Shown: positions 859 through 10,980, counted from the stretch's first letter. The stretch: 64,000 bases of DNA from Myxococcota bacterium (GCA_036338695.1 JAYZBQ010000048.1:160001-224000), one strand, 5' to 3'. The notes: generated by a model not told the origin, from the letters alone. A program made the numbers and translations.

Positions 859-1446
859 ATGAAAAAGCCCCGGCAACACCTCCGCCTCGACTTTCAACGT
901 CGCGCCGCGCAGACGACGCCGGCGACTCGCCTAGACGCCAGCCGCAAACGCCTTCTGGCGTTGGCGCTTGGCGCCTCGCTTGGCGGCGCAGCCGCGTGCG
1001 GCGATCTCGAGACCATCCCAGCGCCCGACGCCGGGGTCGTCGACCCACCCAGCGATACGGGTGCGTCATCGGACGCTGCGACGGCGCTCACCGACGCGGG
1101 CTTTCTGCGCGATGCGAGCGAGCGCAACGACGCCGGTGAATCGACCGACGACGGGGGCTTGACCGATGCAGGTGAACAGCCCCCCATGCCGATGCCAGAA
1201 GACGCCGGGGACGCAGAGGATGGCGACACCGGGGTGGTCCCGCCCATGCCGCCCCCACGCGACGCAGGGGTCTCGCCGCGCGACACAGGCGTCTCACCGC
1301 GCGACACGGGCACTTCCTCGCGTGACACCGGCGTCTCTCCTCGGGATACGGGCGTCGTCCCGCCGATGCCGCCGCCGCGCGATACGGGCATCTCACGTCG
1401 AGACATCGGCGAGTTACGGCGCGATGTCGGGCGCGAGGTCCCTTGA
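859..1446 (+). CDS. Low-complexity repeat protein, probable lipoprotein (DAG/DTG and PPMP repeats)
   Basis: Basic N-region, hydrophobic stretch, lipobox-like AAA-C; RDxG repeats with synonymous variation between units; stop overlaps next start (TTGA). Confidence 0.75.
   Translation: MKKPRQHLRLDFQRRAAQTTPATRLDASRKRLLALALGASLGGAAACGDLETIPAPDAGVVDPPSDTGASSDAATALTDAGFLRDASERNDAGESTDDGGLTDAGEQPPMPMPEDAGDAEDGDTGVVPPMPPPRDAGVSPRDTGVSPRDTGTSSRDTGVSPRDTGVVPPMPPPRDTGISRRDIGELRRDVGREVP
1225..1440 (+). repeat. Degenerate 21-bp coding tandem repeat (RD[ATIV]Gxxx x8) with two DTGVVPPMPPP units
   Basis: cgcgacgcaggggtctcgccg / cgcgacacaggcgtctcaccg / cgcgacacgggcacttcctcg / cgtgacaccggcgtctctcct etc. from 1258. 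Confidence 0.9.
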
Positions 1447-2399
1447 CCAAAGCGCCAGAGCGCTGGCTGGCTGACCTGCTGCTTGAAGGCGCCCCGCTCG
1501 ACGAGGTCGAGCGGCAACTCCAAGCGGCTGGGTTTGCGACAGACGAGGCGCTTCAAGCGATCGAAACCGTGCTGTGCTCACCGATCTTCCAGGCGGCGCG
1601 TCCCAAGGTGCAGCTCGCTCAGCGCCTAGCCGCAGCCGCCGAGCTCCACCTCCAAGTCACCGAGGACGGCGGCCCTGTACCCCGGTACAACCAGCTCACG
1701 GCGGAGCGCTTTTACAGCACGTGGCTGCGCCATCATCAGCCCGTCGTCCTCGAGGGGTTTGCGCAGCACTGGCCCGCCCTGAGTTGGACGCCTCAGAGCA
1801 TCGCTGAGGCGCTCGGCGACGAACCGATCGAAGTGCTGTCGGGGCGCACGTCGGCAGACCATCCAGATCGCGACTATCGTCAGCTCAGGCACTCGATGGT
1901 CCCTCGAGATTTCGCGGCGCTGATCGAGTCGTCGGGCGCGTCCAACGACGTCTACCTCGTCGCCCGAAACCACCTCATGCAGCGACCCGCTGCAGTACGC
2001 CTTCTCGACGACATACCGATCTCGAGCGACTGGGTGCGGCGCGACAACCTGAGCACCTGCTGCAGCTTGTGGATGGGACCCGCCGGCACCTTTACCGCCG
2101 CACATCACGACACCTGCAGCGCCCTGTTCGTGCAACTTGTTGGGCGCAAGCGCTTTGAGCTGGCGTCGCCTCTTCAGATCGACGCCCTGAGCGAGTTAGA
2201 GCCTTACTACCTCAGCCACCGCAATCTGAACGACGTCTGCGACGGCGTTCGTATCGCCGAGCTTGAGCCAGGCGACGCGTTGCTGCTCCCCGTGGGCTGG
2301 TGGCATCAAGCGACGGCGCTGAGCGTCTCCGTCGGTATGAGCTTTAACGGCTTGCACGTGACCAACCGATTCGACGCCTACTGCCCTGGCCGGCTCTAG
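1443..2399 (+). CDS. JmjC/cupin-like Fe(II)/2-oxoglutarate-dependent oxygenase
   Basis: QPVVLEG..WPA..W N-part, LWMGPAGT, HHD (HxD) and LEPGDALLLPVGWWHQ distal His. Confidence 0.88.
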   Translation: MTKAPERWLADLLLEGAPLDEVERQLQAAGFATDEALQAIETVLCSPIFQAARPKVQLAQRLAAAAELHLQVTEDGGPVPRYNQLTAERFYSTWLRHHQPVVLEGFAQHWPALSWTPQSIAEALGDEPIEVLSGRTSADHPDRDYRQLRHSMVPRDFAALIESSGASNDVYLVARNHLMQRPAAVRLLDDIPISSDWVRRDNLSTCCSLWMGPAGTFTAAHHDTCSALFVQLVGRKRFELASPLQIDALSELEPYYLSHRNLNDVCDGVRIAELEPGDALLLPVGWWHQATALSVSVGMSFNGLHVTNRFDAYCPGRL

Positions 2400-4315
2400 G
2401 CGACTCGGGCGCGATGATCGAGCAATAACACCCAAGCCTCGGCGGCGAGAAAGACCAGCGCGAGCAGCAGCAAGAGCGGCCACAGCGGCTGGCGCTCCGT
2501 CGAGCCGACACCGCCCTCACCCGCAGCTGCGACGACCTCGGCGAAGGGCAAGCTCTCACGCGGGTCCGCTCTGAGCTCAACGGCTAAGCCCTCATCACGC
2601 TGCTGCCACAGGCCAAGCGATGGCGGCTCAAAACTGAGCTGGTCGTCGAGCAACTGCCCGCGCGCCACGCCCCCTTCGGCGCGTCGAAAGACGGGATCAT
2701 CCGTGACCTCAGCGACCGTCCACACCTGCCCGGGCACAACGCTCGGGCTCAGCTGAGTGGCGACGGCACCCGAGAGCCGGCGCAGCGCGCCTCTCAAAAG
2801 CGGCACGAACCCTGGGCGAATGGCGAGGTCGGCATCATCTCGGTCGATGCTCGTCGTCAGCAGCGCAACCTGACCAGACCCCACGGGCTGCTCAATCCAA
2901 AGCGGCCTGCCGTCGCTCATACGCCACCGCACACCCGCCTGTGCGTCGACGTTGAGACCCTGCCAGATCATGGTCCTGAGCAACCCTGCGCCTCGCTCAA
3001 GCCCGAGCTGGCGCGTCCACTCGAGGTTCGGCGGAGCAGCGCTCAGCGCCGCCCGCTTGCTGACCTCGCCGTCCGGATCCTTCGCGGCCCAGCGCGCACG
3101 CGGCACCGCAGGCAGGATCGGCCCGAGCGCTCGCTGCAGCTCCAGCGGGTCCGTGTTGGAGCCGACGCTGATCAACACCCCGCCACCTGCGCGGGCAAAA
3201 CTCATCAACGCTTGCGCAAAACTCGGGTCAAGCCGGGCGACGTTCGCGAGCAGCACGACGTCCGCCTCTTGGAGCGGCGCGCGGTGCTCCTCACCCGCCG
3301 AGACCGACTCGAGGGTAAACGGGTCGTGATGATCAAGGGCCCGCGCCGCTTGACCGACATAATAGAGCTCGTCCGCATAGGCGGAGTCACGCGCATCGCC
3401 GTTGACCGCGAGCAGCCGCGTCGGACCGCTCGCGACCAAGAGGCTTTGGCGCCGATTGTCCGCTGAGCGTGGGTCCTCCGGGAGGCGCAGCTCCAGCCGG
3501 TACCGGCCGGGCTCAAGACCCAGGGTCAACTGAGCGACTGCGCGCCCGCTCGCCGGCAACGTCACGCGGGTTGCGGCGCGCGCCTTGCCGTCGACCAACG
3601 CCTCCACACGCACCGGACCCGGCGCGCCCACGACCTCGACCTTGAGCTTGTAGCTGTTTCCGCCGCGCCGGCTCAAGGTGACCTCACCCAAGCCACGATT
3701 GCTGGTGCCTTCGTCGGGCTTGGAGACCCGCTCGATCGGCGCATCACCGATAAACGACGACCAGCCGTCGGTGAGCACGAGCGCCGACTCGGGCAGCGAC
3801 GTAGCGCAGGCGGAGAGACCGGCGACGCCGAGCGGCTCAAAGGACCCCACCTCAGCGGCGACGCGCACCCCAGAGCGAGGCTCGCCGACCAAAGGCTTCA
3901 ACCCCTTGACGGTGCACAGTGAGAGGCTGACCGGGCGCCGGTCCGCCTGCGCCTGAGCGCTGGCGAGGGCGCGCTCAAAGAAGCTGCGTCCGTCCTCGCC
4001 GCGCGTGCCCATCGAGCCGCTCCCATCGATCAGGAGCGCCAGGGCGCTGCGATCCGCCTGCGCCGGCGTTGCGTCGCGCCCGAGCTGAGGCTGCAGCAGC
4101 GCCAAGATCAAGCAGAGCACCCACGCCGTTCGGAGCGCCAGCAACAACCATCGCCTCAGCCGCATACGCCGCTCTTGGCGCTTGAGCGCTCGAAGGAGCA
4201 GCCCGATCGGTGCGAACTCCATCGGTCGAGGCGGACGTCGCGTCAGCAGATGAATGATCAAGGGCGCGCTCACAAGCGCCAAAAGCGGCCAGAATACCAG
4301 GTTGAGGAAGCTCAC
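2396..4315 (-). CDS. BatA-domain / vWA membrane protein
   Basis: N-terminal MSFLN..PLIIHLL..F BatA signature, LLIDGSGSM MIDAS, VLTDG, C-terminal LWPLLLL TM. Confidence 0.85.
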   Translation of the reverse strand: MSFLNLVFWPLLALVSAPLIIHLLTRRPPRPMEFAPIGLLLRALKRQERRMRLRRWLLLALRTAWVLCLILALLQPQLGRDATPAQADRSALALLIDGSGSMGTRGEDGRSFFERALASAQAQADRRPVSLSLCTVKGLKPLVGEPRSGVRVAAEVGSFEPLGVAGLSACATSLPESALVLTDGWSSFIGDAPIERVSKPDEGTSNRGLGEVTLSRRGGNSYKLKVEVVGAPGPVRVEALVDGKARAATRVTLPASGRAVAQLTLGLEPGRYRLELRLPEDPRSADNRRQSLLVASGPTRLLAVNGDARDSAYADELYYVGQAARALDHHDPFTLESVSAGEEHRAPLQEADVVLLANVARLDPSFAQALMSFARAGGGVLISVGSNTDPLELQRALGPILPAVPRARWAAKDPDGEVSKRAALSAAPPNLEWTRQLGLERGAGLLRTMIWQGLNVDAQAGVRWRMSDGRPLWIEQPVGSGQVALLTTSIDRDDADLAIRPGFVPLLRGALRRLSGAVATQLSPSVVPGQVWTVAEVTDDPVFRRAEGGVARGQLLDDQLSFEPPSLGLWQQRDEGLAVELRADPRESLPFAEVVAAAGEGGVGSTERQPLWPLLLLLALVFLAAEAWVLLLDHRARVA

Positions 4316-5190
4316 CGGATGACCCCCTCAAGGAGCCGGCGGATGGGTTCGATCGGGCTTTGACCGGTCCGGCAGGGGACGAAGCGAACACCGGCGCTCG
4401 CAGCCGCAGCGAGGCATTCGGCGTCAAAGCGCGCCAGCTCCTCAAGATAAGCGGCTCGTAGCGCCCCGGCGTCAGCCACCAACGGCGCCTCACCCTCGAG
4501 CCCTGTAAAGCGGATCGGCCCTCGGTAATCGAAGCCGAGCTCATCTTCAGCCAAGACCCGCAAGACCACGAGGTGCCAGCCCCTCGACCGGAGCTCAGAG
4601 AGCTGCCGCCAGAAGGTCTCATCGACCGACAAAAGGTCACTGACGATGACACCAAGCCCCCGCTCAGAGCGCTCCGCAAGGGCGCCGAGCGCTGCGCTCA
4701 AGTCCGTCTGCCCCTCAGGCGTGATCTGCTCAAACGTTTGCGCTGCGGTGTCCAACTCGGCGATCTGTCGAAGGCGCAGCTTGGCGCGCGGCACGCCAGC
4801 GACCGCGTGCAGTTCGGCGGCGTCCCCACCGAGGCGAGCGCAGTAAGCCGAGGCCAAACCAAGCCAGCAAGCGTACCGCCACTTGGACACCGGCTCACCC
4901 GTGCGCATGCTCGCTGAGGTATCGATCAGGGTGTGCACGCTCAGGCGTCGCTCAGCGCGCTGCTCGCGCACGAGGACACGCGCCGAGCGTGCCGAGGCGC
5001 GCCAGTCCACTCTTGCGGGTTCATCACCCGAACGAAAAGCCCGGTGCTCCACGAAATCCCCGCCGCCTTGAACGCCGCGCGCGGCGTGCGCGCCCAGCGG
5101 CACCGCCTCCACCAAACGGCGGACCTGGAGGTGGAGCCGACCCAGCCGGCTGAGCTCCTCGATCAGGTCTTTGGTGGACTCGATGGGCAC
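4312..5190 (-). CDS. DUF58 domain protein (MoxR partner)
   Basis: DFVEHRAFRSGD..RVDWRASAR, IDTSASM, VIVSDL; directly downstream of MoxR. Confidence 0.92.
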   Translation of the reverse strand: MPIESTKDLIEELSRLGRLHLQVRRLVEAVPLGAHAARGVQGGGDFVEHRAFRSGDEPARVDWRASARSARVLVREQRAERRLSVHTLIDTSASMRTGEPVSKWRYACWLGLASAYCARLGGDAAELHAVAGVPRAKLRLRQIAELDTAAQTFEQITPEGQTDLSAALGALAERSERGLGVIVSDLLSVDETFWRQLSELRSRGWHLVVLRVLAEDELGFDYRGPIRFTGLEGEAPLVADAGALRAAYLEELARFDAECLAAAASAGVRFVPCRTGQSPIEPIRRLLEGVIR

Positions 5191-5195
5191 CGACT

Positions 5196-6164
5196 TTACG
5201 CGATCAGTCGAAGCGCCACGTCGGCGCCGGTAAGGCCTTCGGACTCCGCCCGGAAGTTCGGGATCAATCGGTGCCCGAGCACGGCCGGTGCGACCGCCCG
5301 AAGATCGCTCATATCGGCGGCGGGGCGTCCCTGCATGAGCGCTCGAGCGCGCGCCGCATGCACCAGGAACTGGCTCGCCCTCGGACCGGCGCCCCAGCGC
5401 AGGTAGGTGCGCACGAGCTCCGGAGCCTCCTCACCGGGGCGGCTGCTGCGCACCCAGGCCACGGCGCGCTCGACCAAGCCCTGATCGACGGCCACCTGAT
5501 TGACCAGCGTCTGGATCTCCGCAAGGCGAGGGGCCGACCAGACCGGGTCAACCGGCGCCGCTAAGTCAGCCTGCGTCAGCGCCGCGATCCGGACCTCATC
5601 CTCTGCGCTGGGGTAGTCCACGTGCAGCTGCATCAAGAAGCGATCGAGCTGTGCCTCTGGCAAGGGATACGTACCCTCCTGCTCGATGGGGTTCTGGGTC
5701 GCAAACACGTGGAATGGCTGACCCAGATCATAGCTCGTCCCGGCGACGCTGACGCTGCGCTCCTGCATAGCCTGAAGCAGCGCCGCTTGGGTCTTAGGCG
5801 GCGTGCGGTTGATCTCATCAGCGAGCACCAACTGGGCGAAGATCGGCCCCTGCAGAAACCGAAACGAGCGCTTGCCCTCATGCTCTTCAAGCACCTCTGA
5901 GCCCAGGATATCAGCCGGCATCAGGTCCGGCGTGAACTGAATGCGCGAGAACGCCATGCCGGTGGCTTCAGCTACGGTGGAAACCAGCAACGTCTTCGCC
6001 AAGCCGGGGACCCCGACGAACAACCCGTGACCACCGCCGACCAAGCAAGTGATCAGACCATCGACGACCTGTTCTTGACCGACGATGCGCTTGTGGATGC
6101 GGGCGCGCAACTCGCGCACATCTGCAGCGACACGCTCGAGACTGTGTTGCAGTTCTTGGCTCAT
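5196..6164 (-). CDS. moxR: MoxR-family AAA+ ATPase
   Basis: GVPGLAKT, RIQFTPDLMPAD, LADEINRTPPKTQAALL, ATQNPIEQEGTYPLPEAQLDRF. Confidence 0.96.
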   Translation of the reverse strand: MSQELQHSLERVAADVRELRARIHKRIVGQEQVVDGLITCLVGGGHGLFVGVPGLAKTLLVSTVAEATGMAFSRIQFTPDLMPADILGSEVLEEHEGKRSFRFLQGPIFAQLVLADEINRTPPKTQAALLQAMQERSVSVAGTSYDLGQPFHVFATQNPIEQEGTYPLPEAQLDRFLMQLHVDYPSAEDEVRIAALTQADLAAPVDPVWSAPRLAEIQTLVNQVAVDQGLVERAVAWVRSSRPGEEAPELVRTYLRWGAGPRASQFLVHAARARALMQGRPAADMSDLRAVAPAVLGHRLIPNFRAESEGLTGADVALRLIA

Positions 6165-7945
6165 GGTTTTTCCTTTAAATCAACGGTCAGCGTGGTGGTT
6201 TTACCCAGCACAACCTGGACATCGAGGCTGCGCTCAAGGCTGAGCGCGGTGTTACGGAGTGTCACCCGGCGTGTCCCCACCGGGACCGGGTAATCGGTCA
6301 AGGGCGTGGCGCGCTTGAGCGGCTTATCATCGATGAGGACGTCGGCCCACGGGGTGCTCGTGATCGAGAGGAAGCCGACATCACCCTGGTGATCCTTCTC
6401 GCCGGTCGCGGGTAGCTCGCGACGCAGAACCTCGAGGGCGCGGGTCTCACGGGTGACGATCTCGTCGAGCTTGAGCTCGGTGGCGGCGATGCGCATCCCT
6501 TCGTGCACCTCAGGGTCGAAGGGGTTGATGGCGTTCGCCCGCCTGTAGGCGTCGAGCGCCTGCTCGTAGGCCTTGGACTGGATCGCTAACCTACCGAGCA
6601 GGACGTGAGTGCGTGGATCGTCTGGGTTACGCGTCGCGCTCTGACCCAGCACTTCTTGCGCACGCTCTAGCTTCTTTGCGGCGATCAGGCACGAGGCGAG
6701 GCGGTGCACCAGCCCCGGATAACCCGGCCCGGCGCGCTTGAGGCTGCGTTCATACTCGATGGCGGCGGCGGCGCGATGCCCTCGACGGTACAAGAGGTCA
6801 CCGAGGCGCGCGTAGCGACCCGCCTCACCGTCCGGCCGATCAGGGTCGTCGTCGTCGACGGCGGCGCGGTTGGTGCCAAAGGCGATCGCCGGCTTCGTCA
6901 CGCCGTCGCGTGTCTCAAAGGGTCGCTTTTTGAGCCAGGCGCTCCACCTCGACTCGAAGGTTTTAAGATCGGCGCCCGTGACGGCCCGAAACGCTCGATC
7001 GAGGTTGCCGCCGGAGGCTTTGAGTCCGTCGAGCAGCCCGAGGATCGCCTTGTCCGAGTAGGTCTCAAGGAGATACTCGATCGCCGTGTGCACCTCAGCA
7101 AAGGCGGTCGCCGTAGCCTCCTGGCTTGGCAAGTACGCCATCGACGGCGACATCTGCTCAAACGTGATCAACTCATCTTTGTTGACCGCCCTCGCCAGGA
7201 GCCCAGCAGAGCGCGGGGAGAGCGGCTCACCAAAGGGCTTACGCCAACCCGACTCGTGGTACTTGGCGAGCCCTTCGTGCAGCCAGACAGGGACCGTGTT
7301 GTGGCTCTTACGACTGATCAAGAGGTGGATCAGCTCGTGACTGACCGTATCCAGCCAGTCGTAGCCTCGCAACGTCACCCGCGGCGTGATGATCATCAAG
7401 CGATCAAATTTGCACAATGCGATCGTCCCTGAGGTCTGGATGGACTTGAGATCGAGCGTCGAGACGCGGCTAAAGGCTTTGGTTGACGGGTACACCTCCA
7501 CCACCAAGGGCGCGTCGATCGTTAGACCAAAGCGCGGCGCTAAGCGATCGATGGCGTCATTCAGCCCAGCGAGGAGGTACGGAGCGAGCACCTCATCCGG
7601 ACCCGGCGCCATCCGAACGATCGCCCGCCGGTCTCGATATTCCGTAAAGTCTTTGGTGACGAGGTACGTCTCACGGATCAGTGAGTACATCGCCGGCTCA
7701 CGCCCCGTCGCCGCTTTGGCGCGGCGCATCAGATCCATTGCGTCGGCATAGCGCTGTTGGTGAAACTTCACGCGCGCAGCGGCCGCTTGAATCGCCGGAA
7801 GATCGGGGAGCGCCTCGAGCAAGGGCTCGACCGCTTTGGCTGCGGCGTCCACCTGCCAGGCGTTGAGCAGAGCCTGAACCTGGCGCTCAGGGCCCGCCGT
7901 CGCGACCTGCGAGACGCTCAACGCGATCAACAGCCACCATCTCAT
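6161..7945 (-). CDS. Secreted TPR / peptidase MA-like / PEGA domain protein
   Basis: Signal peptide, TPR-like helices, HELIH (HExxH) plus WLHEGLA, C-terminal ITSTPWADVLID..TP PEGA-like motif. Confidence 0.85.
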   Translation of the reverse strand: MRWWLLIALSVSQVATAGPERQVQALLNAWQVDAAAKAVEPLLEALPDLPAIQAAAARVKFHQQRYADAMDLMRRAKAATGREPAMYSLIRETYLVTKDFTEYRDRRAIVRMAPGPDEVLAPYLLAGLNDAIDRLAPRFGLTIDAPLVVEVYPSTKAFSRVSTLDLKSIQTSGTIALCKFDRLMIITPRVTLRGYDWLDTVSHELIHLLISRKSHNTVPVWLHEGLAKYHESGWRKPFGEPLSPRSAGLLARAVNKDELITFEQMSPSMAYLPSQEATATAFAEVHTAIEYLLETYSDKAILGLLDGLKASGGNLDRAFRAVTGADLKTFESRWSAWLKKRPFETRDGVTKPAIAFGTNRAAVDDDDPDRPDGEAGRYARLGDLLYRRGHRAAAAIEYERSLKRAGPGYPGLVHRLASCLIAAKKLERAQEVLGQSATRNPDDPRTHVLLGRLAIQSKAYEQALDAYRRANAINPFDPEVHEGMRIAATELKLDEIVTRETRALEVLRRELPATGEKDHQGDVGFLSITSTPWADVLIDDKPLKRATPLTDYPVPVGTRRVTLRNTALSLERSLDVQVVLGKTTTLTVDLKEKP

Positions 7946-10851
7946 CGTACGAGCTCCCTGTAATAGCGATCAACCGCCGGCTTATCCGGCCCCGCAAAGC
8001 CCTCACGCCAGGCGTCCATAATCTCATCTCGCCAGGCTCCCGGAACCCCCTCATCAGCGTCTGGAATCTCGACGCGGTCACCCGAACGCCGACCGCGCCC
8101 GTCGCGTCCACCCGGCTGTTGTCCCGACCGCCCCTGAGACCCACCCGAGCCCCACGGCATCGGCATCCCGGAAGCGCCCTGGCCTTGACCGTTCTGCATC
8201 TGCTTCTCGAGCCCCTCAAGCGCTGAGAGCACACGCCCTTGGGCTTGATCTGCGCCTGGCGCATCCGCCTGCCCCAGCGCGCCGCCCGCAGCTGACGACG
8301 CCGCAGAGGCTTCGCCCATCGCCTTCATCGCCTCGTCCCCAAACATCGGCGCCATCTCGTTGAGCTCATTCATCATCTCAGCGAGCTTCTCGAGCCGGTC
8401 GCCCACGCCTTTCTGCTCGCGCTGCGCGCTGCGCAAGCGCTGGCGCTCCGCGCGGTTCATCAGCTGGTCTTCGTCTGGCAAGAGCCGCTCGAGCAGGGCG
8501 ATCGCCTCACCCACCCGCTCCATCGCCAGCCGTTGGTGGCGCTTCATTTTGGGCTCCTCGATCATGAACGCCAAGGTCTCGAGCAGCCCCTCGCTGCGGC
8601 GCAGCACCTCGAGCGCCTCCATAAAGCCGTCGGCAGCGAGCGCCTTATCGACAAACTGAAGCCGCTCATCGACCCCGTCGACACGCGACTTCATCCACGG
8701 GCCAAGACCGCTCATCTGCGAGAGCGACCCGCGCGCTTCAGCGAGCAGCTTCTGGAGCTTCTGACGCAGCTGATCGAGCCCACCAAAACGCTCCAGCTGA
8801 CGATTACGAGCCTCCTTGCGCAGGCGCTGAACGCCGGCGCGCAGCTTCTCTTGCTGATCGCGAATCATGCGCATCTGGTCTTGGATCGCCTTGCCCTTAG
8901 CGGCCGCTTCTCGCCACTCCTTGCCGCCAAAGCGCTCAGAGGCCCCTTTAACTTGTTTCTCGACCTGACCAAGCGCTTGGCTCATGGCGTCGAGCGCAGC
9001 GAGCGCCTCTTCCACCTTCCCTTGGCGCACCATCGCCTCGAGGTTGTCCAGCTCTTTCGCCACCGAGCGCTGCTCGAGGGCGTCGCGATTGATGTACTGG
9101 CGCCCGACGCGTTTTTCGAGCTTCGCCATCTTCTTTCCAAGCTCATCAAGGCGCCTCCTGATGGCGCGGATCGAGGCGATGATCTGCTCCTTGAGCCCCT
9201 CATCATCAGCCGACGCTCGATACCGCTCGACCAGCTTCTGCAGCGCCGCTCGCTCACGCTTGACCTCTTGCTGGAGCCGATTGAGCTGGCTCAAGCGGCG
9301 CTTGCTGACCAGGTCATCAAGGAACAGGAGGTCTCGCTCCATGCGGTTCTCCATCTGAGCCGCCGTAACCTGCCCGGCTCCATAACGCTCGGTCGCTTCG
9401 GTCAGTCGTGTGACCACCATCGAGACCGCCCGCTCGAGATCGCCGGCGTCCAAGCGTCGGTCGCTGAGCTGCTTGGCGAGCTTGTCGCCCTTCTTGAGCG
9501 CTACCGCCGTCGCCTTGACCCACGCCGGCGCCGGCTCGCTGCGCAGCAGCAACGGCGCCAAGCGATCGGTCAGCGACTCGACGAAGCGGTCGAGCTGAGC
9601 GAGCAGCTCATCCAGCCGCTTGCTCGGGTCGAACAGGTGGATGCGATGCCACCGGCTGCGCCCGGTACGCGGCCCCGTGACGTTGTTGTTGTCCGCCATC
9701 TCGACGACCCAGTTGAGCGTATCGCCAGGGCGCATCCCGAGCTCACTCAGGATCAGGACCCCCTTATGACGAATGTTGGCGCCCAATCGGTCGAGCTTGA
9801 TCGGTCGCCGAACCTCCTCGGCGCTACCCTCCATCCGCGTGATCAGCTCGGCGGAGGCGATCCCATGATCATCCTGCGCCTCGATCAGGTACTCCACCTC
9901 CTTAGCGGTCTCGAGCTCGAGTGGCTGCTCAGGGAAACGGCGGAGCACTTTGGGCGGCTGATCAGGGTATACCTTCAGCCCATGCCCTTCTCGCTCAACC
10001 GCCTCCTCGCCGCCGACGGTGAGCGCAAAGCGATAGGTGCCGGAGGTGCGCGCCACAAAGCGCCCCGTCAGGGTGCCTCCCTCGTTCACATCAAGCACCA
10101 CGCGCACGCCATCGACCAGCAGCGCAGCAGCCTCTGGGGCGCGTGCAAGACTCGGCGTCACGGTGAGCTCCACCTCAGTGCCTTCGGGGACCTCAAGCTC
10201 ACCGTCGCTGCCGAGCAGCTGCTCGGGCGACCGGTTGAGGTAGGCGGGGTAATGGAGCGTGAAGTCGAGCTGGCGCAGCTGCGCGAGCCCACGCTGCGCC
10301 GCCGCCTGTTGCGCGCCCGTCGACCACTGATCGAGGAACCGCTGCGAGGCGCTCGGCCAGGTCAGCGCTGCGCTCACGGCGGTCACCAACCACAAACCGG
10401 CTGCGCCGATCACCCAACGACGGTTTAGATCATACAGAGGTTCTTTCTCGACCCCGCTTAGGTCGGTTGTCCCGCCACGAATCGCGAGGGCCACCGCCTC
10501 GTCACTGCCCGCTGCGATCCGCCCAAACGCAAGCTCGGTTGCGCTGACCTGAGCGGGCGTTAGCTGCCCGCTCACCACCAGCCGCGCTACCACCTCGCGT
10601 GCGCTCAAAGCGCCCCACCGGTTCCGCTGCAGCCGACGAAGGATCCAAGGCAGCGCGCTCAGCGCGACCACCAACGTCACCAGCATCACCTGGCGCCCAG
10701 CGATCCACTCAGAGGCTGTGACGAGAGCCAACACAAACGCAAGCTGAGCGAGCCCGAGGCCAGCGGCGAGCAGCGCCACGTGATCACGCCATGCGAGCCG
10801 TGCGCGCAGGCTGGCGATCCCTTTCCTTATCTGCTCAGCTTCGCTCTGCAT
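7942..10851 (-). CDS. DUF4175-like membrane-anchored coiled-coil protein
   Basis: Three N-terminal TMs, YPAYL and DQPP..AQDDHGI Ig-like motifs, long coiled coil, Gly/Gln-rich tail ending RYYRELVR; ATG 10851 preferred over the track start 10899. Confidence 0.8.
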   Translation of the reverse strand: MQSEAEQIRKGIASLRARLAWRDHVALLAAGLGLAQLAFVLALVTASEWIAGRQVMLVTLVVALSALPWILRRLQRNRWGALSAREVVARLVVSGQLTPAQVSATELAFGRIAAGSDEAVALAIRGGTTDLSGVEKEPLYDLNRRWVIGAAGLWLVTAVSAALTWPSASQRFLDQWSTGAQQAAAQRGLAQLRQLDFTLHYPAYLNRSPEQLLGSDGELEVPEGTEVELTVTPSLARAPEAAALLVDGVRVVLDVNEGGTLTGRFVARTSGTYRFALTVGGEEAVEREGHGLKVYPDQPPKVLRRFPEQPLELETAKEVEYLIEAQDDHGIASAELITRMEGSAEEVRRPIKLDRLGANIRHKGVLILSELGMRPGDTLNWVVEMADNNNVTGPRTGRSRWHRIHLFDPSKRLDELLAQLDRFVESLTDRLAPLLLRSEPAPAWVKATAVALKKGDKLAKQLSDRRLDAGDLERAVSMVVTRLTEATERYGAGQVTAAQMENRMERDLLFLDDLVSKRRLSQLNRLQQEVKRERAALQKLVERYRASADDEGLKEQIIASIRAIRRRLDELGKKMAKLEKRVGRQYINRDALEQRSVAKELDNLEAMVRQGKVEEALAALDAMSQALGQVEKQVKGASERFGGKEWREAAAKGKAIQDQMRMIRDQQEKLRAGVQRLRKEARNRQLERFGGLDQLRQKLQKLLAEARGSLSQMSGLGPWMKSRVDGVDERLQFVDKALAADGFMEALEVLRRSEGLLETLAFMIEEPKMKRHQRLAMERVGEAIALLERLLPDEDQLMNRAERQRLRSAQREQKGVGDRLEKLAEMMNELNEMAPMFGDEAMKAMGEASAASSAAGGALGQADAPGADQAQGRVLSALEGLEKQMQNGQGQGASGMPMPWGSGGSQGRSGQQPGGRDGRGRRSGDRVEIPDADEGVPGAWRDEIMDAWREGFAGPDKPAVDRYYRELVR

Positions 10852-10980
10852 CTTGCCTTTCCAACGCCTTTTGGGCGAAGTCGGACTTAAGCACAACACG
10901 GCAACTCAGACGGAGCTTCCACCGCCTTTGCTTTTCAGCCCAATCCACCTCACTTGGACGTTGTTTGAATAGGATGCTGC

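Follow-up and report, generated by a model that had tools for sequence, protein, structure and literature searches.

A proline-rich repeat lipoprotein encoded next to a JmjC oxygenase in myxobacteria: a predicted substrate-enzyme pair

In myxobacteria, a lipoprotein gene and the JmjC oxygenase gene beside it form a genuine two-gene system with a patchy distribution, and comparison of both genes with their relatives indicates that the oxygenase probably hydroxylates P-M-x-x-P repeats of the lipoprotein encoded with it. In the window (the whole 64,000-nt stretch of DNA that was analyzed), both genes are on the plus strand. The first (859-1446) encodes a 195-aa repeat lipoprotein, which is the predicted substrate based on its sequence and orthologue alignment. 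The second (1443-2399) encodes a JmjC Fe(II)/2-oxoglutarate (2OG) oxygenase of 318 aa that matches Cupin_8 (E 6e-26) and JmjC_2 (E 8e-11). The TGA stop codon of the repeat ORF (1444-1446) overlaps the TTG start codon of the oxygenase gene at 1443, as reported in a preliminary description of this DNA, and from the resulting TTGA (1443-1446, plus strand) we infer translational coupling of the two genes. To our knowledge, the substrate is known for only a few of the bacterial JmjC protein hydroxylases; the present family encodes its likely substrate next door.

The repeat ORF begins with a predicted signal peptide II (859-999, plus strand) composed of a long basic N-region, a hydrophobic stretch, and a lipobox-like GGAAA sequence before Cys47 (codon at nt 997-999). 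Its AAAC site deviates from the textbook lipobox consensus at -3, and the lipoprotein signal is predicted by pattern, from the hydrophobic stretch and Cys47. In an 18-sequence alignment, orthologues are 51-67% identical and Cys47 is invariant in 18 of 18. Both Lgt and LspA are above cut-off in the host genome. A recount agreed with the earlier description of a 195-aa ORF with a basic leader, an AAAC lipobox-like site, and DAG-type motifs, and gave 15 D[ASTVI]G, eight RD[ATIVS]G, and three PPMP motifs. The core motif copies are PPMPMP (aa 108-113, 1180-1197), PPMPPP (aa 128-133, 1240-1257), and PPMPPP (aa 168-173, 1360-1377), all on the plus strand, and the longer sequence DTGVVPPMPPP occurs twice (aa 123-133 and 163-173). 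Residues P128, P129, M130, P131, and P133 are invariant in the 18-sequence alignment, and a relative with 99% identity (P0034) has one core motif copy fewer. The eight RD[ATIV]G heptad spacers (1258-1431, plus strand) are lineage-specific filler and probably not the target. No Pfam or NCBIfam family matched the repeat ORF above cut-off. Over the first 52 codons, six within-genus pairwise comparisons gave 16-26 synonymous differences versus 13-21 amino-acid changes, which are of the same order, and the Pro codons of the motifs vary at the third base within the genus; these two observations indicate that the ORF is kept at the protein level. A promoter scan found none.

Conservation of gene order is informative about the pairing. 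The oxygenase was found in all five family relatives (G001-G005), and the repeat ORF is directly upstream in all four that are informative, the sequence of G005 ending at the partner position. The ORF is 54-66% identical in G001-G003, and in G004, which belongs to another genus, the contig begins within a PPMPPP ORF that overlaps the ATG of the enzyme. The overlap reads GTGA or ATGA in G001, G003, and G004, and the two genes abut in G002. Genes downstream of the pair differ among the family relatives. In a wider contig scan, the best 78 loci of 564 relatives were examined, which are a top slice and not a sample; six had less than 300 nt upstream and were set aside. A lipoprotein is directly upstream of the oxygenase in 60 of the 72 informative loci (mostly Myxococcota), which are not independent events because several are close kin and some repeat loci of earlier searches. 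In these informative loci, the enzymes are 30-61% identical. A same-strand upstream ORF with at least two [APVG]-P-[MQ]-[PAV] motifs was present in 57 of the 72, and three further upstream lipoproteins of this kind had either a single Gln motif (L101) or a core that reads PTAGPC (L111, L122). The rest consisted of one locus with the partner downstream (L092), five Myxococcaceae-type loci, and six in which a partner was not seen. Enzymes of L109 and L133, which fall inside the Met and Gln clades described below, have no adjacent partner. At L092 (4975-5560), the partner lies 3' of the enzyme and its Met repeats are in a second reading frame, for which a frameshift in the assembly is the probable cause.

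A class sample of 151 genomes (150 drawn evenly from the class of Sorangium, plus So ce56) contained the enzyme in 14 genomes, with 18 matches at E 1e-40. Three matches without upstream DNA were excluded, and a lipoprotein partner accompanied 12 of the 15 informative matches; the three partnerless matches are among the weakest. With the counts from the family relatives and the contig scan, this bears out the earlier proposal that a repeat ORF might be conserved beside homologues of the JmjC protein. The search was also productive in reverse. Used as query, the repeat ORF retrieved eight metagenome loci; the JmjC gene is next in seven, the eighth stops at a contig edge, and three of the seven continue into a JmjC protein with only 33-35% identity. 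Of the 151 class-sample genomes, 11 contained a match to a tandem PPMPPP DNA pattern. Matches outside the JmjC locus were mostly antisense readings of Gly-rich genes and one C-terminal tail, and no JmjC gene was near any of these non-locus matches in the 151 genomes. A looser first DNA pattern was dropped, as Leu/Lys variants and antisense Gly-rich genes matched about as often as the control. Cultured strains with the two-gene unit include Sorangium cellulosum So ce56, Nannocystis, and Paraliomyxa.

Neighboring genes were compared in 73 loci with crude gene calls and flanks of up to 4 kb, and no third gene was common beyond close kin; the representative of the largest neighbor cluster (11 of 73 loci) is the enzyme gene read in antisense. 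No leader protease or exporter/transporter is conserved at the 73 loci, so the product is more likely to be the whole lipoprotein than freed core peptides. Upstream of the pair in the window, a GH3 beta-N-acetylhexosaminidase-like gene (3-827) ends 31 nt before the repeat ORF and is preceded by ABC peptide-transporter-like genes, a context kept within the genus only. Downstream is a convergent minus-strand cluster (2396-10899) of genes labeled by sequence reading as vWA/BatA-like, DUF58-like, MoxR ATPase, TPR-peptidase, and long coiled-coil; the final gene of this cluster shares 4 nt with the JmjC gene at its stop.

Polyproline (PPP) runs stall ribosomes, and together with the stop/start overlap in the family of this pair they could fit a model in which the Pro-rich ORF is a translational sensor whose stalling controls the coupled JmjC gene. 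This model is very improbable given that the lipobox Cys is conserved, that a gap precedes the enzyme start in most distant loci (among the best 78 of 564), and that Myxococcaceae peptides are encoded on the opposite strand.

The partners share a short motif that is likely to be the part read by the enzyme. The conserved element is x-P-X-x-x-P, where X is Met, Gln, or Thr, and the fuller common element is [IVP]-[PA]-P-X-x-x-P. In 60 of 64 partners, an automatic pattern located a Cys that follows a hydrophobic stretch; four partners are incomplete, and a few Cys picks are wrong. The mature parts vary freely in length and filler (acidic, Thr/Gly-rich, or Gly-rich), and the only conserved part of the mature lipoprotein is a motif of 5-7 residues. 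Among Met motifs (n=276), position +3 is Pro in 93%; among Gln motifs (n=240), positions +1 and +2 vary widely. The Gln and Thr classes share the frame of the Met-class motif, and Thr-class cores contain Cys and His. On a polyproline II helix, positions -3, 0, and +3 would share one face. In the host genome, only one of 56 DAG-rich lipoprotein-like ORFs has at least two x-P-[MQ]-x-x-P motifs, namely the repeat ORF, which upholds the earlier view that PPMP motifs rather than DAG linkers carry the argument. The Thr-class partners (L111, L122, L187, L192) have the same signal region and PTAGPC-x-H, PPTIPC, or PPTAC cores, and the enzymes paired with them group in one clade that has Asp225 and Leu302. 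Runs of RD[ST]G heptads without any PPMP also occur in CxxCH lipoproteins, both in the host genome (G000:C7:20880-21686) and among P0044-P0046.

The oxygenase has an intact HxD...H iron triad, as first described; ligands H221, D223, and H288 are invariant in 16- and 58-sequence alignments. The 2OG residues are Y171, T218, K236, and W210, and H221, D223, H288, Y171, K236, and T218 are invariant across 41 Met-class and 21 Gln-class enzymes. The enzyme is single-copy in the host genome, and no signal peptide is evident in its sequence. NCBIfam had no match for either gene of the pair or for any of 58 enzymes. The AF2 model (pLDDT 87.3) matched JMJD5 best, followed by JMJD7, FIH, and TYW5; JMJD5 is the best match by sequence (E 2e-41) and by Foldseek (E 2e-17, 26% identity). 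An Atlas search gave one match at 0.82, which is a lead only. Arg238/Gln239 of FIH appear to correspond to Tyr255/Tyr256 of the oxygenase. Hardly any variation is seen at Tyr256 in the Met, Gln, Thr, Asn, and His classes.

JMJD5, JMJD7, and FIH are protein hydroxylases; JMJD5 is an arginyl C3 hydroxylase, and JMJD5 and FIH both act at C3 (PMC5862942). Like JMJD5, the oxygenase has HxD...H, Tyr/Lys/Ser(Thr) for 2OG binding, and an equivalent of W310 (PMC5862942). Unlike JMJD5, it has an extra N-terminal helical module, is encoded beside its predicted substrate, and is without two residues of the JMJD5 active site. One is Glu238, which binds the substrate Arg in JMJD5 (PMC5862942) and is a hallmark of the JMJD5 family (PMC2938197); its equivalent is Leu132 here and mostly Thr, Ala, Cys, or Met in the family of the oxygenase. 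The other is the betaIII Asn (N327), which binds 2OG in JMJD5 and is replaced by Ala, Ile, or Val in the family, so the active site is not standard. The oxygenase is not a JMJD5 orthologue. The replacement of Glu238 also bears on whether Asp or Arg of the RDxG heptads, residues among the targets proposed earlier, is hydroxylated in the manner of FIH or JMJD5. The repeat ORF has eight heptads that are conserved within its family, and JMJD5 is the nearest solved relative, yet only 5 of 64 partners contain RDxG two or more times, and Arg is absent from 20 of 64 in their mature part. Moreover, these heptads are also found in CxxCH lipoproteins that do not have the core motif, and the Arg-binding Glu is replaced. 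For these reasons the Asp/Arg target is not supported, and we consider it highly unlikely.

Enzyme residues also covary with the motif residue X. Class labels were assigned by motif count and then hand-corrected for 32 rows, two duplicate loci were removed, and the first tree left out three rows shorter than 300 aa. The most class-specific of 238 columns is position 208, followed by 225 and 302. Position 208 is Ala, Ser, His, Tyr, Gly, and Lys in the Met, Gln, Asn, His, Thr, and other Myxococcaceae classes, respectively, with a mean within-class conservation of 0.98. Positions 208 and 302 correspond to JMJD5 N308 and W414, which were changed to Cys for cross-linking substrate peptides (PMC5862942); such positions are beside, and not necessarily on, the oxidized residue. 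Enzyme clades track X and not host family, with 6 label changes versus 37.1 for shuffled labels on a quick tree of 90 rows from which the pocket columns had been removed. Only two Met/Gln pairs are independent, for which a sign test gives p 0.5 at best. A tree in which the Met and Thr classes form a single clade is not rejected either (p-AU 0.70) and has a better likelihood than the free quick tree; co-inheritance alone could therefore give the covariation, which is suggestive and not proof of co-evolution. The oxygenase of the pair has S208, C225, and N302 at the class-specific positions. S208, Y255, and S300 are Gln-class residues despite the Met partner, and N302 is Met-class. One quick tree nested the family of this enzyme among the Gln class, but a clade test gave no support for an independent Gln-to-Met switch, and that candidate was rejected.

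These results also bear on a rival reading, in which the Pro-rich lipoprotein stays unmodified at the surface or envelope and shares only its regulation with an oxygenase acting on another target. DAG-rich disordered lipoproteins are common (56 in the host genome), the covariation cannot be separated statistically from the tree, and some enzymes are without a partner. However, the two genes remain neighbors where every flanking gene differs, the mature protein is conserved only in its short motif, the class-specific enzyme residues are at substrate-contact positions, and Myxococcaceae relatives retain a peptide with P-X-P, even though it is encoded on the opposite strand. Mere co-regulation is thus unlikely, and modification of the repeats by the oxygenase is the preferred reading.

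The oxygenase begins with an all-helical module (aa 1-75, 1443-1667, plus strand) that is predicted to bind peptide. It is modeled with high confidence (AF2 pLDDT 92.9) and contains helices only. The module had no Pfam family and no Foldseek match at E 0.001; its best fold score (Z 6.0, RepB' primase) is within chance for helical bundles. Matches to the helical portion of PqqD (Z 4.3) and lasso B1 (Z 4.2) were only weak, and residues 1-78 are modeled with four helices and no strand; on these grounds identity as an RRE was ruled out. A module profile matched 720 representatives. Most of the best 150 of these are members or fragments of the JmjC family, and a few are repeat proteins, probably by chance. 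Among P0118, P0145, P0162, P0154, P0176, P0188, and P0169, the module also precedes a 2OG-FeII_Oxy_3 (P4H-like) domain, alone or fused to JmjC; P0162 has it twice before the P4H-like domain, and in P0118 and P0145 it is ahead of both JmjC and P4H-like domains. Its presence on P4H-like enzymes and on JmjC/P4H-like fusions suggests Pro-rich substrates and a division of labor, and the module would bind a Pro-rich chain. Others of these family members have an extra N-terminal domain that by eye resembles an alpha/beta-hydrolase or sulfotransferase (no Pfam family at 1e-4).

In the proposed mechanism, the oxygenase, which is without an evident signal peptide, would modify the precursor in the cytoplasm before export. 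The Pro-rich chain would be bound, perhaps through the helical module, and each P-M-x-x-P would sit in a groove lined by residues 208, 225, 300, and 302 and then be hydroxylated. After modification, Lgt and LspA would lipidate the protein and cleave it at Cys47, giving a 149-residue membrane-anchored peptide with up to three modified sites. The repeats as substrate, hydroxylation as the reaction, and lipidation with export are all deductions from the two genes and their relatives, and our working guess is that the product is a modified surface or envelope peptide. The oxidized atom is the least certain step of this mechanism. C3 of Met is ranked first as a tentative choice. C3 of X is favored because the known chemistry of the clade is C3 hydroxylation of varied side chains and because the P4H-like fusions suggest that another enzyme handles Pro; we also know of no JmjC prolyl hydroxylase. 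Simple C3 hydroxylation is impossible for Thr, and this speaks against X as a target common to all classes. An invariant Pro at -1 or +3 is ranked second, as a rather doubtful candidate; it is favored by this limit on Thr, by the near-invariant Tyr256, which appears to lie near the target-side-chain site of FIH, and by cross-link positions that flank the target. In FIH, Arg238 and Gln239 bind the target Asn (PMC6488082).

The oxygenase could also modify the repeats in another way, for example by oxidizing the Met sulfur or S-methyl group, by desaturating or cross-linking the chain, or by cleaving it and thereby releasing short peptides. The lack of a conserved protease in the 73 loci could be explained by such cleavage, PDB titles annotate JMJD5 as a bifunctional peptidase, and the replaced betaIII Asn and the Cys and His of Thr-class cores fit chemistry other than simple hydroxylation. 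However, a Met-specific chemistry cannot fit the Gln, Asn, His, and Thr classes, and no hydrolysis was found in the JMJD5 study (PMC5862942). These other reactions are quite unlikely compared with hydroxylation, which is still the reaction that we propose. A broader and speculative extension of hydroxylation is a programmable JmjC family, in which the helical module and a swappable pocket (208/225/302) would read one face of a polyproline helix and produce C3-hydroxy-Met, -Gln, -Asn, or -His on co-encoded repeats. If this is true, the family would represent a JmjC-based class of lipid-anchored RiPPs and an enzymatic beta-hydroxylation of protein methionine, of which a literature search found no description; a Myxococcaceae branch would have redirected such enzymes to small peptides that are encoded on the opposite strand, next to CHAT-protease and ECF-sigma genes.

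DAG-RiPPs are signal-peptide-II precursors with repeated cores that are modified by a neighboring enzyme and then lipidated (PMC13056109). The characterized examples DybA and NedA resemble the present pair in having a short precursor with a signal peptide II, a lipobox Cys, and a core in the mature part, an adjacent iron oxidative enzyme, and a product that remains lipid-anchored; the core of NedA is a repeated EGKCG, comparable to the repeats here (PMC13056109). They differ in that an MNIO acts on Cys motifs (PMC13056109), whereas the pair has a mononuclear JmjC enzyme and a P-X-x-x-P core without Cys. Mining for DAG-RiPPs was run on MNIO neighborhoods, and the terms JmjC, cupin, and PMP have 0 occurrences in the main text of that paper (PMC13056109). 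The Cys47 pattern, Lgt and LspA, an adjacent conserved enzyme, and a conserved core motif were all found in the pair, which is best read as a two-gene DAG-RiPP-like unit; membership is provisional because the characterized members use MNIOs on Cys motifs and the modification here is predicted. If it is true, DAG-RiPPs would extend beyond MNIO enzymes, natural enzyme-substrate pairs with five motif-centre residues would be available for studying JmjC specificity, and a first function would be given to a helical module that is also found on bacterial prolyl-hydroxylase-like proteins.

Other bacterial JmjC proteins have been connected to peptide modification. BipG from biphenomycin biosynthesis is a bacterial JmjC enzyme that hydroxylates ornithine within a ribosomal precursor peptide, and it belongs to a nine-gene cluster with a protease (PMC12707348). 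No mention of a lipoprotein or of Pro-rich repeats with BipG was found in the available text of PMC12707348. The survey of Iyer et al. (2010) predicted that bacterial members of the FIH/JMJD5 clade, including myxobacterial ones, are peptide modifiers, in NRPS or ATP-grasp clusters unlike the lipoprotein pair; "lipoprotein" and "Sorangium" have 0 occurrences in the available text (PMC2938197). Bacterial JmjC homologues have also been noted in RiPP-like contexts in PMC12710340, the available text of which does not describe the lipoprotein pair. The open literature, covered as titles and abstract openings, had no description of a lipoprotein-JmjC pair.

Myxococcaceae relatives of the enzyme are associated with non-lipoprotein peptides that are encoded on the opposite strand and contain IVP-N-P or IAP-H-P motifs. 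Loci of this type have two to four tandem JmjC copies beside a gene labeled by sequence reading as a CHAT-type protease (L043:9250-9400 in G014, L046, L049, L056, L058, L059, L102, L112, L113, and L019-L041). A Pro-rich ORF of 45-70 aa with IVPNP motifs and a PxxPPTTPPL tail is on the opposite strand between two JmjC copies. The last tandem copy (L043:7331-8332, P0099, P0112) keeps the N-terminal module without HxD and the distal His, and by this pattern it is likely a dead enzyme acting as a scaffold. At L044:5640-5830, L047:6304-6480, and L059:11293-11469, a small divergent ORF, in which VK[SN]NY is conserved and followed by Cys, adjoins single JmjC copies beside genes labeled by sequence reading as ECF-sigma, anti-sigma, and CHAT-like. 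Loci L057, L060, L062, L063, and L064 form a separate clade in which the divergent peptides consist of PLKS and IAPHPPPP or IPPHPAP repeats, and the enzymes have Tyr at position 208.
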